The notes under the pieces are model-generated. The model worked only from the letters and a program-made list of their open reading frames with translations. It did no database searches and had not been told where the DNA came from. A program made the translations under genes and the position numbers. A DNA stretch of 64,000 nt from an uncultured Pelagibacteraceae bacterium (GTDB lineage: Bacteria; Pseudomonadota; Alphaproteobacteria; Pelagibacterales; Pelagibacteraceae). Of the stretch, positions 32,826-42,972 are shown piece after piece (position 1 is the stretch's first letter; the number at the start of each line of letters is the position of its first letter). The DNA is taken from NCBI GenBank assembly GCA_902578525.1, contig CACHDJ010000002.1, positions 8,699 through 72,698 of the forward strand, read 5' to 3'.

Positions 32826-34685
32826 TTAAGAAGCTTTTTTCTTCTCGTTTTCATCTACAATATGATAGACGGGGACTTTCTCCATTGTAAACTTGCCAGT
32901 TTTGGGATCTCTTCTAGAAACAGTTAAACAATGCCAATTGTCATCATCTAATTTCATGTGATCTCCCCTATAGTAATATCCTGGCCATCTAGTTTCTTCT
33001 CTAAACATGGTGTGTTCCGTTACACATTGTGAAGTAAGGGCTCTATGCTTTAATTCCCATGCTCTCATAAGTTGATGATAATCTTCTGCACCTACATTTT
33101 CTAGATCTTCTTCTAACCAAGCTAATAATTCTAAACCTCTTTTAAGCATGTTTTCATTTGTCATGTAGTTTGTAGCTATACCACCAACATATTCGTCCAT
33201 GATTCTTTGAAGTCTTTGCAGACCTTGAATTGGGGATATATAACTTGGGGAAACTGTTCCACCAGTAATTTCATTTTGAGCTATCGTATAAGTATCTAAT
33301 GGTTTGTAAACTTTAGCTTTGAAATCGTCACATTGTTTATCTGTAACATTAATACCTTCAGCTTTTTGATCTTCAATATATTTTACAGCTGCTTTTGCTG
33401 CTAATCGACCTTCTGTAAATGATCCTGACGAAAATTTATGTGCACTTCCACCAACTGTATCTCCAGCACCAAATAACCCATCAATAGTTAACATTCTGTT
33501 ATAGCCCCAAAAGTATTCTGGTGGTGACAAATCTTCTGGTCCACTAACCCAGGCTCCTGAACATGTTGCGTGTGAACCCATCACGTATGGTTCTGATGTA
33601 GTTAACTCTGGATTTGTATATTTTGGATCAATATTTTGAGATGCCCAAACTACGGCTTGCCCGACAGTCATTCCTAGAAAATTTTCCCAACCTACTGTTT
33701 CTAAATGAGGATCTTGAAACGCTTCTGTTGTAACCATTTGAATTGGTCCACCGCCAGCAATTGTTTCTTGAATAAATGCATGGTTTCTTAAACATGTTGG
33801 AGTTGGGTGATGATCGATATATTCACCAACTAGCTCCTTAGTTTGATCGTACCATTTTTTCTCATAGTTTTCGCCATTTGCATTTTGAGTGTAAGTTTTT
33901 AGATGTAAAAAATATGCTCCAACTGGCCCATAGCCGTCTTTAAATCTACATAAAACAATTCTATTTTCCATTTGAGTCATTTTTGCACCTGCAGCAATAG
34001 GTAAAGCATAAGCCGAACCGTTACTCCAAGGTGCATACCAAGTTCTTCCCATGCCTTCACCAACTGCCCTTGGCTTGAATATATGAGATGCTCCTCCTGC
34101 AGCAACAATCACAGTTTTAGATCTAAACACATGAAAATCTCCTGTTCTCATATTAAATCCTACAGCTCCGCCCACTCTGTTTTCTTTTGCCTCATCCATT
34201 AAAAGATGAGTAATCATTATTCTATTATAAATTTTATCAGCTGATTTTTTTGCAGCTTCTGCAACGATGGGCTTATAGCTTTCACCATGAATCATAATTT
34301 GCCACTTGCCTTCTCTTAAATATCTTCCAGTTTTTTCATTTTTCATCATTGGCAAACCCCACTCATCAAACATATGAACTGTTGAGTCTACATGACGAGC
34401 CATGTCATATCCTAAATCCTCTCTAACCATTCCCATCAAATCATTACGAGCATATCTAACATGATCCTCTGGCTGATTTTCATCCCATTGCATTCCCATA
34501 TAGCAATTAATTGCATATAATCCCTGTGCAACAGCTCCACTTCTGTCGATATTTGCCTTTTCAACACAAACAATTTTTAAATCTCTTCCCCAATGTCTAG
34601 CTTCAAAAGTAGCACCAGTTCCTGCCATACCACCACCGACTACTAATACATCACATTCTTCAAAATGAGTTTTATGCTTAGCCAT
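32826..34685 (-). CDS. aprA: Adenylylsulfate reductase alpha subunit
   Basis: GGGMAG, RSGAVAQGL, WQIMIHGESYK, HKFSSGS, ETRWPGYYYR. Confidence 0.97.
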   Translation of the reverse strand: MAKHKTHFEECDVLVVGGGMAGTGATFEARHWGRDLKIVCVEKANIDRSGAVAQGLYAINCYMGMQWDENQPEDHVRYARNDLMGMVREDLGYDMARHVDSTVHMFDEWGLPMMKNEKTGRYLREGKWQIMIHGESYKPIVAEAAKKSADKIYNRIMITHLLMDEAKENRVGGAVGFNMRTGDFHVFRSKTVIVAAGGASHIFKPRAVGEGMGRTWYAPWSNGSAYALPIAAGAKMTQMENRIVLCRFKDGYGPVGAYFLHLKTYTQNANGENYEKKWYDQTKELVGEYIDHHPTPTCLRNHAFIQETIAGGGPIQMVTTEAFQDPHLETVGWENFLGMTVGQAVVWASQNIDPKYTNPELTTSEPYVMGSHATCSGAWVSGPEDLSPPEYFWGYNRMLTIDGLFGAGDTVGGSAHKFSSGSFTEGRLAAKAAVKYIEDQKAEGINVTDKQCDDFKAKVYKPLDTYTIAQNEITGGTVSPSYISPIQGLQRLQRIMDEYVGGIATNYMTNENMLKRGLELLAWLEEDLENVGAEDYHQLMRAWELKHRALTSQCVTEHTMFREETRWPGYYYRGDHMKLDDDNWHCLTVSRRDPKTGKFTMEKVPVYHIVDENEKKKAS

Positions 34686-35155
34686 TAATAGTAAACACCT
34701 TTTTTAAAAGAGTCTTTTGGAACAGAAGGTAGTTCTCCATTAGTATTTAAACCTTCTGGCTCAGTATAAAGTCTTTGAGAATTGATTTCACCTTGATTAG
34801 GTTTATCACCTTCAGCAAGTTTTGGAATAAATTTTCCCCAAGGTTTTGTTGTAATTGGAGATACAAAATTTTTTTCAGTCCCATTTCTAAATTTAATTTT
34901 CCAGGAAATTGTTCCTTTTTCTTCTTCTCTTCTTACTCTAACACTATGACCCATTGGTGCAAAGTCTGCATAACCTCTAACATCAATAGCATGATTTGGG
35001 CAAGCCTTGACGCAAGAATAACATTCCCAGCAAAAATTTGGTTCAATATTTTTAGCACGTCTAATATTTTCATCTATGTGCATAATATCTGACGGGCAAA
35101 TATCTACACAATGACCGCAGCCATCACATCTGGTCATGTATACAAAAGTTGACAT
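34685..35155 (-). CDS. aprB: Adenylylsulfate reductase beta subunit
   Basis: CDGCGHCVDICP, CWECYSCVKACP, RGYADF. Confidence 0.96.
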   Translation of the reverse strand: MSTFVYMTRCDGCGHCVDICPSDIMHIDENIRRAKNIEPNFCWECYSCVKACPNHAIDVRGYADFAPMGHSVRVRREEEKGTISWKIKFRNGTEKNFVSPITTKPWGKFIPKLAEGDKPNQGEINSQRLYTEPEGLNTNGELPSVPKDSFKKGVYY

Positions 35156-35187
35156 AATTTTAATTTTCTCCTTTTTTTAATAACATA

Positions 35188-35982
35188 TTAATAGTGTTTT
35201 GGCTCTTCTCTTTTTATACCCAGGCCAAATTGCTCAGGCGCGTCTGCTGGGGGTGGAAGATTGTCCCTTGATCCATCAGCTTCAGCTAAATTTTTTTGTA
35301 TAGCTGCACCAGGTTTGTAAAACATATGAGCAAATTTAGACCAGTAAACTCCGCCAAATAAAATTAGGTTAGAAGCAACAAATAAAGTTAAGAATAAATA
35401 TGATAACCCCATTTGACCATTAAATTGAGTATAAGACCAAGCTAATCCAAAAGTTGAACAAGCAAGTAACGCTAACACAAACAAATCTGCTTTAATAATT
35501 CTATACCAAGGATGGGCTTCAGCAGATACATCAACTCTTAAAAAAAACCAAAACCAGTATCCTCCAATACAAGTTAAAATAGCACCTATGTGCCAAAGCA
35601 TAGACCATGTTTCAGAATTTGCTTTCCCAGCCCCAGTAAAGCAGAAAACTAATACTGCTGAAGATATCCAAAATAAAATTGTTCCATACATTCCTAGGAC
35701 ATGAGCAAGTCTTCTTTTGCCAAAGCCTAGCTCTGATGTTGTTCCTATATCGACAACTGTTGTCTTTGCTATTATTGAGGTTTTTTCTCCAATACCTAAT
35801 TCTTTTGTAGCCGCTAACTTTGCTTTCTTTGCATTATTAAAAAAATATGTAAGATTTTTATGATGTATCATTTGAATTATTGTTCCAACAGCAATTAAAA
35901 TTATCATTGCAATTATAAAATATTGCATTGCTAAGGGTGAAACTAATTCTGATAAAATTGAAAAAGGATTTGTTGAAAGCAT
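35188..35982 (-). CDS. aprM: APS reductase membrane anchor
   Basis: Multi-TM, WFWFFLRVDV, WSKFAHMFYKP; upstream of aprB. Confidence 0.88.
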   Translation of the reverse strand: MLSTNPFSILSELVSPLAMQYFIIAMIILIAVGTIIQMIHHKNLTYFFNNAKKAKLAATKELGIGEKTSIIAKTTVVDIGTTSELGFGKRRLAHVLGMYGTILFWISSAVLVFCFTGAGKANSETWSMLWHIGAILTCIGGYWFWFFLRVDVSAEAHPWYRIIKADLFVLALLACSTFGLAWSYTQFNGQMGLSYLFLTLFVASNLILFGGVYWSKFAHMFYKPGAAIQKNLAEADGSRDNLPPPADAPEQFGLGIKREEPKHY

Positions 35983-38584: not shown

Positions 38585-39805
38585 TTATTCTGTTTTAAGT
38601 CTTAAAACTGGTTCTTCCTTAATCGGTAAATGTATTATTGCTGCAAAAACAGATAAAGCAATTGCTAAATACCACGCATAGTCATACGATCCGTAAAGAT
38701 CATGAAACAAGCCCCCTAAATATGCACCAAAAAATGATCCTATTTGATGACTTAGAAAAACAATTCCATATAAAAGACCTAAATATTTAGTTCCAAACAT
38801 ATGTGCTACAATTCCACTTGTAGCTGGAACAGTTGAAAGCCACAAAAAACCAAAACTAGCTCCAAATAAAAAAGCACTTAAATTACTCGCAGGTGTAAAT
38901 ATAAAAAGAATGATGGAAATTCCTCTAAGAAAATAAATTCCACTTAGAATAATCTTTTTACTCATTTTTGCTGAAAGATAACCGCTTAACAAAGACCCAA
39001 AAATATTGAATAAACCTATTAATGAAAGAATGGCGGCTGCAGTCCAGTTTTCTAATCCTCTATCAATGACATATTTAGGTACGTGAGTTCCAACTAAAGT
39101 TATATGAAAACCACAAACAAAAAACCCAAACACAAGTAAAATGTAACTTTTAGTTTTGAAAGCCTCTATGAGTGCCTCTTTTAATGATTGATCTGACAAT
39201 TTCTCGGCACTTTCGGACTCGGATGGAGATCTACAAAAGTATGCAGCAATTAAACCGGTTATTAAGAAAAGAGAAAAAATGAATAAGGTATAATTCCAAC
39301 CAAATTCAACTAAAGAATAATTTGTAAAAATTGGAGAAAGAAAATAACCAAAGGAGCCAACAGCAGTTACAAAACTCATTGCGATTGTTCTGGTAGAAAG
39401 TGGAAAATGCTTGCCAACAATTGACATAGGAATACTTATTGCTGTTCCACCCAGTCCAATTCCAATTAATAAACCCATATGGATTTGAAAGAAAATTCCA
39501 GTATTTGGGCCAGTGTATAAAAAATATGTACCTAAAGTATAAAATATAAATGCAGAAATTATTGCTATATGACCACCATATTTATCTGCTATTGCTCCAA
39601 AAATAGGTCCGGTTAAACCCCACATTAACATTTGTATACCAATAGCCAAACCAAAGGCAGTGTTACTAATATTCAAGCTTTCATTAAAATCCATAAAGAA
39701 CATGCCAAAAGTTTGTCTTACACCAAGTGAAATCAGTACTACAAAACATGCAGCTAATAATGTAATAACTGCCGTTTTAGATCGAAAGAAATTTTCCGAA
39801 GTCAT
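38585..39805 (-). CDS. MFS transporter
   Basis: 12 TM, GAIADKYG, CGFHITLV, WLSTVP, HQIGSF. Confidence 0.9.
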   Translation of the reverse strand: MTSENFFRSKTAVITLLAACFVVLISLGVRQTFGMFFMDFNESLNISNTAFGLAIGIQMLMWGLTGPIFGAIADKYGGHIAIISAFIFYTLGTYFLYTGPNTGIFFQIHMGLLIGIGLGGTAISIPMSIVGKHFPLSTRTIAMSFVTAVGSFGYFLSPIFTNYSLVEFGWNYTLFIFSLFLITGLIAAYFCRSPSESESAEKLSDQSLKEALIEAFKTKSYILLVFGFFVCGFHITLVGTHVPKYVIDRGLENWTAAAILSLIGLFNIFGSLLSGYLSAKMSKKIILSGIYFLRGISIILFIFTPASNLSAFLFGASFGFLWLSTVPATSGIVAHMFGTKYLGLLYGIVFLSHQIGSFFGAYLGGLFHDLYGSYDYAWYLAIALSVFAAIIHLPIKEEPVLRLKTE

Positions 39806-40977
39806 TTAAGGTGTCTTAATGCTTGTTTTATGTCTGCTATTAAGTCAATTGGATCTTCTAGACCAATATGAAATCGTACAAGATGTTCATCTTTTGCTAA
39901 ATTCATATACTTTCTTTTACCAGTTTCCCTAAATTCTTGATGAAGAGCTAAACTTTCAAAGCCGCCCCAACTGTAACCATAACCAAAGAGTTTTAAAGAA
40001 TTTACAAATTTTCTTACAGAATTTATATTTTTTGATTTTATTTTTAGACCCATCAAACCAGAAGCACCTGAATAGTATTTTTTCCACATCCTAAAATTAT
40101 AGGAATTTTTTTTATAAGGATAAAGTAACTTAATTTTTTTATTCTTGGATAAAAAAGCTGCAACTTTTTTTGCATTTTCCCTATGTCTATCTAATCTAAC
40201 ATCCAATGTTCTTAATCCTCTAGTAATTAAATATGCATCATCTGGTGCTAATCTTAAACCAGTAATTTTTTCTGCAATTTTTACCTTATTAAAAACTTTT
40301 TTACTTACTGCTAAACTTCCACCCATTACATCTGAATGTCCTGAATAATATTTAGTTGCAGACACAATCGACATATCGAAACCAAATTTAATTGGTTTAA
40401 AATAATATGGTGTCGCCCAAGTATTATCTATTGCTGTAATAATTTTATTTTTCTTAGCTATAGTTATTATTTTTCCTAAATCTTGAAATTCAAATGAGTT
40501 ACTTCCTGGATTCTCAACAAAAATTAATTTTGTTTTTTTTGTTATATTATTTTGTAATGTTTTCAAATTATGTGGATCATAAAAGACTGTTTTTATTTCA
40601 AATTCCTTTAAAAAATCTTGAGTTAACAATCTTGTAGGACTGTATACCGGATCAGCAACCAAAATTTCATCTCCAGGTCTAACAACACTAAATATTGCTA
40701 AAAATACAGATCCAAAACCTGTAGGTGTTGTAAAAACATGATAACTTTCTTCTAATTTTGTTAAAATTTTTTGTAATATATGAGTCGTAGATGTTCCCTG
40801 TCTTCCATAATCATAATGACCGCCAGTAGGATTTTTTTGTGATTTTGCTTGAGTATTTCTTAGATGTTTCATCGACTTAAAGATAATCGTTGAAGCCCTT
40901 ACAACAGGAGGGTTTACTGACTGGTTATGAAAGTCTTTTGCTGTATGTTTTAAAAATGTTTTAAAAGAATTTGACAT
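39802..40977 (-). CDS. metC: Cystathionine beta-lyase
   Basis: VNPPVVRAST, YGRQGT, DNTWAT, SATKYYSGHSD, GYSWGGFESL. Confidence 0.9.
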   Translation of the reverse strand: MSNSFKTFLKHTAKDFHNQSVNPPVVRASTIIFKSMKHLRNTQAKSQKNPTGGHYDYGRQGTSTTHILQKILTKLEESYHVFTTPTGFGSVFLAIFSVVRPGDEILVADPVYSPTRLLTQDFLKEFEIKTVFYDPHNLKTLQNNITKKTKLIFVENPGSNSFEFQDLGKIITIAKKNKIITAIDNTWATPYYFKPIKFGFDMSIVSATKYYSGHSDVMGGSLAVSKKVFNKVKIAEKITGLRLAPDDAYLITRGLRTLDVRLDRHRENAKKVAAFLSKNKKIKLLYPYKKNSYNFRMWKKYYSGASGLMGLKIKSKNINSVRKFVNSLKLFGYGYSWGGFESLALHQEFRETGKRKYMNLAKDEHLVRFHIGLEDPIDLIADIKQALRHLK

Positions 40978-40985
40978 AAAAAAAA

Positions 40986-41020
40986 TTGATAACTCCTTAG
41001 GACAATGCTATATCCCGCTG
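40986..41020 (+). promoter_or_regulatory. Putative sigma70 promoter for the 27-aa basic ORF
   Basis: TTGATA(40986-91)-N17-TATATC(41009-14) preceded by TGC and followed by GC-rich CCGC. Confidence 0.5.
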
Positions 41021-41053
41021 ATAATTTCAATTAAATTATAATTAAAGGATAAA

Positions 41054-41137
41054 ATGGGTTACCCAAAAAAACATAGAGGCCGAAGAAAACAGGGGTCTAA
41101 AAAAAGAAGAGCAAAAAGAAAAAATAAGAAGAAGTAA
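41054..41137 (+). CDS. Tiny K/R-rich protein, 27 aa (not in ORF track)
   Basis: MGYPKKHRGRRKQGSKKRRAKRKNKKK; SD-like AAAGGA just upstream; stop 5 nt before the next ATG. Confidence 0.72.
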   Translation: MGYPKKHRGRRKQGSKKRRAKRKNKKK

Positions 41138-41142
41138 CTCTA

Positions 41143-41853
41143 ATGGAGCAAATCAATAAGGTTAAGTCCATTAGTATATGGATTTTTATTGTGCCTTTTT
41201 TTGCAGTAAATGCCTGTTTAATTCTTACAACTCAATTTCACGAATTAAATTTAATACCTCATCAACATAAAATTTCTTATCCCTTTCCATATATAGATGG
41301 GGGAGTTTCAATTAGTAGAACTGCAAGATATTTTCCGACTTATTTAATTTTTAAACCAGCGATGTTTTTGACTTCTTATCTTTTAATCATCTACTGGTTA
41401 AACAATAGAAGAATTATAGATTATTTCGATACTGAGAATAAATACAAAAATAAAATTGTATATTTCGGTATTGCTTCCGCAATCGCATTAATATTTCACT
41501 CTATATTTCTTGGAGTGAAATTTGATAATGATATATATAAATTATTTAGAAGAGTAATTATGTTTGTATTTATTATCTTTGAAATAGTTGCCCAAGCTTA
41601 TTTAGTAGCAGCGTTATATTCAATAAAAAATAAAATTTTTCAACACATTAATAAGAATATTTTAAAACTTAAATTTTTTTTAGTAAGCACACTTATCGTT
41701 GTTGCTATTATAAGTATTCCAATAATTAGTTTACCTGGAGATGATTTTTATGGAATAAATCTAAAATATTTAAAACATGCTTTGGAATGGGATTATTTTA
41801 TAGGAGTGATATCTTTTTATCTTTTAACTTTTATGATGTGGAAAAAAAGTTAA
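41143..41853 (+). CDS. Hypothetical multi-TM membrane protein
   Basis: About 6 TM, PYIDGGVSISRTAR, LEW near the C-terminus. Confidence 0.75.
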   Translation: MEQINKVKSISIWIFIVPFFAVNACLILTTQFHELNLIPHQHKISYPFPYIDGGVSISRTARYFPTYLIFKPAMFLTSYLLIIYWLNNRRIIDYFDTENKYKNKIVYFGIASAIALIFHSIFLGVKFDNDIYKLFRRVIMFVFIIFEIVAQAYLVAALYSIKNKIFQHINKNILKLKFFLVSTLIVVAIISIPIISLPGDDFYGINLKYLKHALEWDYFIGVISFYLLTFMMWKKS

Positions 41854-42972
41854 TTAGTTTATAATCCATCCGCCACCCAAAACTTTGTATCCTAGATGGT
41901 CTAAATTATAAAAAACACATGCTTGGCCAGGGGAAATTCCATCTTCAAATTCTTTAAGAGTAACCTCAGCAGAGTTATTTTCTTTTAAATCTATTTTAGC
42001 ATTTAATAGTTTCCCTGTAGATCTTATTTTTACTAGAACTTCCTTTTTCAAATCATTTTTTTTTACCAACAAATTTAAATTATTTATATTAATTTTTTTT
42101 TTACCAAGTTTGTCTCTAGGGCCCACTATAATTTCATTTTTGACAGAGTCTATTTTAAGAACATATAAAGGTTCTGTATCAGAAACTTTAATTCCTTTTC
42201 TTTGACCAATAGTAAAATTAATAATTCCTTCATGAACACCCACTACCTTACCTTCTAAATTTTTTATATTTCCTTTTTTAAAAGATTCGGGTCTAAATTT
42301 TCTAATTACTGATGCATAGTCTCCATTAGGAACAAAACATATATCTTGGCTATCTGGTTTATCAGCAACGTTTAAGTTTAATTCCTTCGCTATCAACCTT
42401 GTTTCATCTTTGACCATTCCTCCAAGAGGAAACCTCAAATAATTCAATTGTTCTCTAGTAGTATTAAATAAAAAATAACTTTGATCACGATTTTCATCAA
42501 CAGCACGATACATGTTGGTTTCATTGCCAGACGTGATACTTTTTACATAATGTCCAGTAACTAAAGCATCCGCTTTAAGCTCTTTAGCAACATAAAATAA
42601 ATCTTTGAATTTCACAGTTTGATTACACTGAACGCAAGGTATTGGGGTTTCACCCTTCAAATAACTCTCCACAAAATTATCAATTACTCCTTGTTTAAAT
42701 TTGTCCTGATAATATAAAATTCTATGTTCTATACCAAGTTTGTTTGCAACTCTTTTTGCATCCATAATATCTTGACCAGAGCAACACTGTTTCGAGGAAG
42801 CAACTTCTTTACCATCATCATAAAGTTTTAAAGTTATTCCAATAACTTTAAAACCCTCTTTTTTCATAATACCTGCAACGGTGGATGAATCTACACCCCC
42901 TGACATTGCAACAACGACTGTGGTATCTGATGGCTTTTTCTTAAAGCCGATAGAATTTAAATCTTTATTCAT
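41854..42972 (-). CDS. mnmA: tRNA 2-thiouridylase
   Basis: [49 protein letters not shown]. Confidence 0.97.

Follow-up and report, generated by a model that had tools for sequence, protein, structure and literature searches.

The window, as we call the whole 64,000-nucleotide stretch of DNA analyzed here, contains an open reading frame of 27 codons located between a divergent metC-like gene and a gene encoding a membrane protein (Table 1). Its product comprises 16 lysine and arginine residues (59%) and neither aspartate nor glutamate, and among the 2,919 ATG-initiated ORFs of 20–40 aa in the source genome it is the only one with a net charge of at least 0.5 per residue. A sequence-only reading had drawn attention to this basic, acid-free ORF, to the preceding AAAGGA and to the combination TTGATA-N17-TATATC followed by CCGC, and we find all of these features as described there.

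Table 1. Features in and around the locus of the 27-aa protein (positions refer to the window).
Feature	Position	Strand	Remarks
Presumed aprA/aprB-like genes with membrane anchor	32826-35982	-	names assigned by eye
metC (cystathionine beta-lyase-like), divergent	39802-40977	-	other genes in its place in several genera
Predicted sigma-70 promoter TTGATA (40986-40991)-N17-TATATC (41009-41014)	40986-41014	+	TG at 41006-41007
Overlapping divergent promoter-like site TTGAAA-N17-CATTGT	41002-41030	-	predicted to face metC; pattern in 39/68 upstream regions
CCGC following the -10 element	41015-41018		
Shine-Dalgarno-like AAAGGA	41044-41049	+	4 nt 5' of ATG
27-aa basic protein gene	41054-41137	+	ORF reading, homologue alignment
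Frag1/DRAM/Sfk1-like membrane protein gene	41143-41853	+	starts 5 nt after the 27-aa gene
mnmA (tRNA 2-thiouridylase), convergent neighbour in Pelagibacteraceae	41854-42972	-	Pfam/NCBIfam, locus maps

Among 68 distinct homologous upstream regions, a Shine-Dalgarno (SD)-like word is found in 42 and the predicted pair of -35 and -10 elements in 41, which is in line with the earlier proposal that the gene possesses a promoter of its own. SD words are rare in the source genome (G000), where they precede 80 of 645 long ORFs at a background of 28. The predicted promoter is absent from the output of a consensus promoter scanner, because its -10 element lacks the final T. The accompanying suggestion of stringent control by a GC-rich discriminator has turned out to be weak, since exact CCGC follows the hexamer in only 5 of the 43 regions that contain TATATC, with at least three G or C among the four subsequent bases in 29, and since the same bases double as spacer of the divergent site facing metC. 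In the families f32, f188 and f192 and in the genus g2 (L110-L114, L014-L030), the gene is not preceded by an SD sequence and a -10-like hexamer is located near the ATG, which suggests that the corresponding messages might be leaderless or carry a short leader. Contigs from RNA runs span the ORF in all four runs examined (of 22 listed), and in one RNA run the bin containing the ORF is the deepest, but such contigs are blind to strand and level and this depth is hence no sign of expression.

The surroundings of the gene are only partly conserved. The ORF precedes the membrane protein gene at all 30 loci inspected, which come from the 30 best-scoring of 88 genomes with a match, and this neighbour is missing from 8 of 11 mapped loci, where the peptide is unchanged and the upstream gene is variable. 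Linkage to mnmA is constant in Pelagibacteraceae (family f1) and lost outside of the family. Neither in the window nor at the mapped loci did we find a ribosomal-protein operon around the gene.

In a direct search, the peptide was detected in 225 of 240 genomes of Pelagibacteraceae, a tally that includes the unpublished genome G233, with one match in each carrier except for a single genome containing two. Genomes of this family are low in GC and measure about 1.0–1.5 Mb. All 58 distinct coding sequences, which originate from 69 loci, consist of 27 codons and end with TAA or TAG. With a pN of 0.080 and a pS of 0.50, their dN/dS amounts to about 0.10, and arginine, glycine and serine residues are maintained through synonymous exchanges. 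The conservation and dN/dS analysis proposed in the sequence-only reading thus speaks in favor of a genuine gene. Across 18 peptide variants, 17 positions are invariant, including the uncharged residues M1, Y3, P4, G9, G14 and S15 as well as H7, and most changes are exchanges between lysine and arginine. Over 51 representatives of the family, M1, K6, G9, R10, R11, K12, G14, S15 and R18 remain invariant. The ORF is a core, stand-alone gene of fixed length, which is almost always present in single copy and which is subject to purifying selection.

Beyond Pelagibacteraceae, strong matches were obtained in five of 401 alphaproteobacterial genomes, belonging to the families f32, f188 and f192. These copies, each an ORF of 27 codons in a different neighbourhood, share 78–85% identity with those of Pelagibacteraceae, and conservation of this kind across families would resemble that of ribosomal proteins. 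The peptide was found in none of 60 genomes of f2, the sister family in the same order, and a broad profile yielded no real match in five of its genomes. Weak matches in 16 further genomes of the class (E>0.004) were dismissed as chance, since the six inspected loci were either partial or out of frame with the ATG. In another class, a single genome out of 91 (G789) scored, by way of its own phage-like contig of 3.3 kb.

Relatives of the peptide are abundant in viral sequences, where they occur in two forms. The short form was located at 38 loci among 349 candidates from viral contigs, and a long form of 28–34 residues, distinguished by a three-residue insertion, in 329 of 600 viral candidates, 80 of which were kept. 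A scan of 185,579 prokaryote genomes for the long form, which short forms would escape, returned three loci with phage-like neighbours where examined. The 118 phage-form loci encode 67 distinct peptides, a diversity far above that of the bacterial copies. Since relatives occur in f32, f188 and f192 as well as in hundreds of contigs from viruses, the initial suggestion that the peptide may be lineage-specific is not supported. In protein databases, 464 and 469 clusters match the two forms, and none of the 120 listed for either carries a functional name.

The phage copies reside in different genomic contexts. In one type, the neighbours are T4-like genes (coding for a thioredoxin-type protein, a primase and an exonuclease, together with tRNAs), in another they are clusters of tRNA and tmRNA genes, several with RNA ligase and hydrolase genes, and in one phage group the peptide belongs to the head module, where GroES and capsid genes are its neighbours, in synteny with pelagiphage HTVC023P. 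Of the 26 larger phage records that carry the peptide, 23 also contain tRNA genes. The proximity to tRNAs appears pronounced when compared to random positions (median percentile 0.13, p 0.01, 13 contigs) but is not significant in the fair comparison to short SD-led ORFs (0.26, p 0.09, 12 contigs after removal of the near-duplicate G857), and we thus do not count it as support. The ribosomal protein bS21 is encoded in one of the 26 records (G853:C1:5553-5702), on a contig that carries the peptide as well as a tmRNA and about 50 tRNAs. ArfA-like ribosome-rescue peptides with SD sites were observed in G874 (G874:C1:61500-61592, L428) and similarly in G855 and G871, with PF03889 exceeding its cut-off in G874 only. 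A BLAST search of an isolate phage collection with the low-complexity filter on gave no match, the peptide is absent from four related isolate phage records, and its motif is missing from 10-kb stretches of HTVC023P, HTVC027P and DSL-LC04. At the equivalent position of the head module, related cultured phages contain other lysine-rich ORFs, such as the small K/R-rich hypothetical proteins gp49-gp52 of HTVC027P (L444:1704-2552), which are unrelated to the motif. The idea that the carriers are cyanophages was abandoned, as psbA was found in none of 20 records.

Known tiny ribosomal proteins are obvious candidates for comparison, and the sequence-only reading had noted no clear identity to bTHX, bS22, bL37 or eL41. 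Our searches agree: no family model in Pfam, NCBIfam or PHROGs matches the peptide, a query of the PDB by sequence and three profiles returned no match at E≤10, and Foldseek, whose power is low here, found none with a 30-residue model. In this AlphaFold model of a 30-residue phage form (pLDDT 81, pTM 0.35), the N-terminal half is extended and residues 16–29 are helical. Among the known proteins most similar to it are bS22/mS38 (PF08213, NF047430; PDB 7jil_5, 9i5v_10, 8fmw_V, 8crx_X), stand-alone proteins of about 30 aa that are equally K/R-rich (55–65% in bS22 and eL41; PMC10085706) and often unannotated (PMC10618245, PMC10085706). The best profile alignment places K12-x-G-S-K-K-R-R of the peptide on K-[MI]-x-K-H-K-R-R of bS22, a weak common K-x-x-x-x-K-R-R register. 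Unlike bS22, the peptide contains invariant P4, G9, G14 and S15, lacks the KHK and RHK signatures and has its predicted helix confined to the C-terminal half. A profile of 20 bS22 sequences, serving as positive control, recovered chains from Flavobacterium, Porphyromonas, mycobacteria, Cutibacterium, Borrelia and mitochondria, whereas the profile of 51 members of the peptide family detected no solved bS22/mS38 chain and no PDB chain at all at E≤10. In hhalign, both families align with a probability of 0.8% (E 0.074), and on the bS22 HMM the scores of family members do not rise above those of shuffled versions (median z 0.18; p<0.05 for 1 of 51; 0 of 20 in the reverse direction), which led us to reject homology. 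The bS22 model itself found nothing over its cut-off in 401 alphaproteobacteria and the source genome, and the bS22 pocket of their ribosomes may therefore be free. In a different phylum (that of G788, Verrucomicrobiota according to the title of L212), bS22-type ORFs, several with GTG starts, were found in 51 of 61 genomes (L217-L247); these are likely often unannotated.

The comparison with other families was equally negative. The peptide shares with bTHX (TIGR04560) a basic core of about 26–27 residues and a G-x4-G-S spacing, but lacks both the initial GKGD and the YG further on; the source genome contains no match to TIGR04560, and when run against the HMM of the peptide family, three THX peptides do worse than shuffled sequences (median z -0.57). 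A separate bL34 (PF00468) is present in all four complete carriers, with a shuffle z of -0.68. For bL37, cL38 and eL41, we found no match in PDB, Pfam or NCBIfam, in searches whose sensitivity is cut by low complexity and which lacked control profiles of these families. By sequence comparison, the peptide is thus no detectable bS22, bTHX, bL34 or eL41.

A clue to its role may come from the distribution of uL30, whose loss in SAR11 has been published (10.1101/672428). This protein was found in 231 of 251 genomes of the class, a sample that includes the unpublished G430 and G629, but in none of the carriers G000, G023, G012, G027, G420 and G598, and in five carriers (G000, G012, G420, G727 and G598) it is cleanly deleted from the spc operon, with uS5 directly abutting uL15. 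Within the 251-genome sample, uL30 is lost in four of five carriers versus at most four of 234 informative non-carriers (Fisher ~3e-6, uncorrected for kinship); twelve of 16 non-carriers without uL30 had been dropped as uninformative owing to an unassembled operon, 11 because they also lack uS5 and one because the contig ends there. The sister family f2, which is devoid of the peptide, contains uL30 in three of three genomes. The association is not strict, as both proteins coexist in G576 (f188) and both are missing in G414, G497, G480 and G589. In G480 (L450), a low-complexity ORF of 215 aa occupies the usual place of uL30 between uS5 and uL15. A rough tree of 806 columns, with deeper nodes unresolved, groups f1 and f2 against f32 and f192 with a support of 98, and the pattern is thus not confined to one clade. 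Still, there are only three to four carrier lineages, all streamlined and AT-rich, and shared streamlining could therefore explain the link.

On balance, we lean towards the view that the peptide is a component of the ribosome and represents a hitherto undescribed family of tiny ribosomal proteins that bind rRNA. Presumably translated from an SD-led message, it would combine an extended N-terminal half, kinked by proline and glycine, with a predicted C-terminal Lys/Arg helix. The invariant core G-R-R-K-x-G-S-x-x-R would thread into a cavity of the rRNA and neutralize phosphates in a manner comparable to bS22, bL37 and cL38, and binding would stabilize the ribosomal subunit. As location we tentatively favor the large subunit near 5S rRNA and uL30 over the bS22 pocket, to which we give little credence. 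The former region accommodates other tiny proteins: actinobacterial bL37 and an extension of uL30 in Borrelia fill a pocket between H39-H42, H89 and 5S rRNA (PMC10618245), and cL38 binds 5S rRNA in chloroplasts, where uL30 is missing (PMC5694952). Unlike the case proposed here, bL37 coexists with uL30, and the site of the peptide is deduced purely from gene distribution. Phage copies may supply or tune the ribosomes of the host, as has been proposed for bS21 (PMC6375957), one of the known phage-borne ribosomal proteins, which are likewise small, basic and common to aquatic phages and SAR11-type hosts. In contrast to bS21, to which the peptide shows no homology, the host protein itself is undescribed in this case. 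It is a speculative and rather doubtful extension of this scheme that the peptide makes up for the lost uL30 in the 5S rRNA region of the most abundant bacteria of the ocean, that phages have spread it from lineage to lineage and that the copies in hundreds of phage genomes are unrecognized viral ribosomal proteins, which would fill a pocket that is usually vacant in the ribosomes of the host; if the hosts of these phages contain uL30, a role as replacement would fail to explain the phage copies.

Several alternatives have to be weighed against a ribosomal protein of a new family. An unlikely one is a factor that acts transiently in translation or binds another RNA, such as tRNA, tmRNA or those of stalled ribosomes, in the style of ArfA and perhaps domesticated from a phage. 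It would be consistent with the constant convergent mnmA in Pelagibacteraceae, the phage copies in tRNA and tmRNA clusters, the frequent tRNAs and occasional ArfA-like peptides in carriers and the much larger diversity in phages, but the mnmA link vanishes outside of the family, tRNA proximity does not withstand the fair control and the source genome has a separate match to ArfA. The latter is a 43-aa ORF outside of the window (G000:C5:5104-5235, minus strand; L429) that scores at the cut-off of PF03889 (E 1e-5), with no counterpart found in G023. That the peptide is a diverged or convergent equivalent of bS22, mS38 or eL41, residing in the 30S pocket formed by h27, h44 and h45 and bridging to 23S rRNA, which would be a version of the favored reading with another site, appears rather improbable in light of the missing signatures and the shuffle-level scores and empty profile searches described above. 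Equal size and charge, the alignable register, the apparently free pocket and an SD-poor genome, as described for bS22-bearing taxa (PMC12123416), are compatible with it, as are atlas hits to eL41 (0.89) and to a cluster that is 26% COX24_C (0.87), which as scores below 0.9 are leads only.

We assign a still smaller probability to a protamine-like condenser of DNA in the nucleoid of the cell or the core of the phage capsid, despite the high content of basic residues and the placement in the head module of one phage group. Other phage copies are found in replication or tRNA regions, and the constant length and the invariant tyrosine, proline, histidine, glycine and serine residues would be easier to reconcile with a stereospecific site than with bulk charge, so that the nucleoid peptide considered in the sequence-only reading fits worse than its ribosomal counterpart. 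Finally, the short distance between the stop codon and the ATG of the membrane protein gene in the window would be expected for a leader peptide or uORF, and an incidental frame in a non-coding RNA could be envisaged. This possibility is largely refuted: constraint on the ORF is of the codon type, no match was found in Rfam, the consensus fold amounts to -2.3 kcal/mol without any compensatory changes and, given the absence of the membrane protein gene from most mapped loci and the variable upstream gene, the ORF is no leader peptide.

In the literature searched, peptide strings included, we found no description of the peptide, which may be contained in the list of misannotated ORFs by Meyer 2009 (PMC2704228). 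It is absent from nine supplementary files of PMC12856327, and the protein described in PMC13640635 is a different one of 55 aa. New in our study are the large family of long-form phage relatives, the relation to uL30 and the rejection of homology to bS22 beyond composition. A core gene of SAR11-type bacteria would have escaped annotation, with about 460 database clusters for each form and no function among the 240 entries listed. If the peptide is indeed ribosomal, the known composition of the ocean's commonest ribosome would change, a large family would join the few ribosomal proteins known from phages, and its presence may account for the tolerance of SAR11 towards the loss of uL30 (10.1101/672428).
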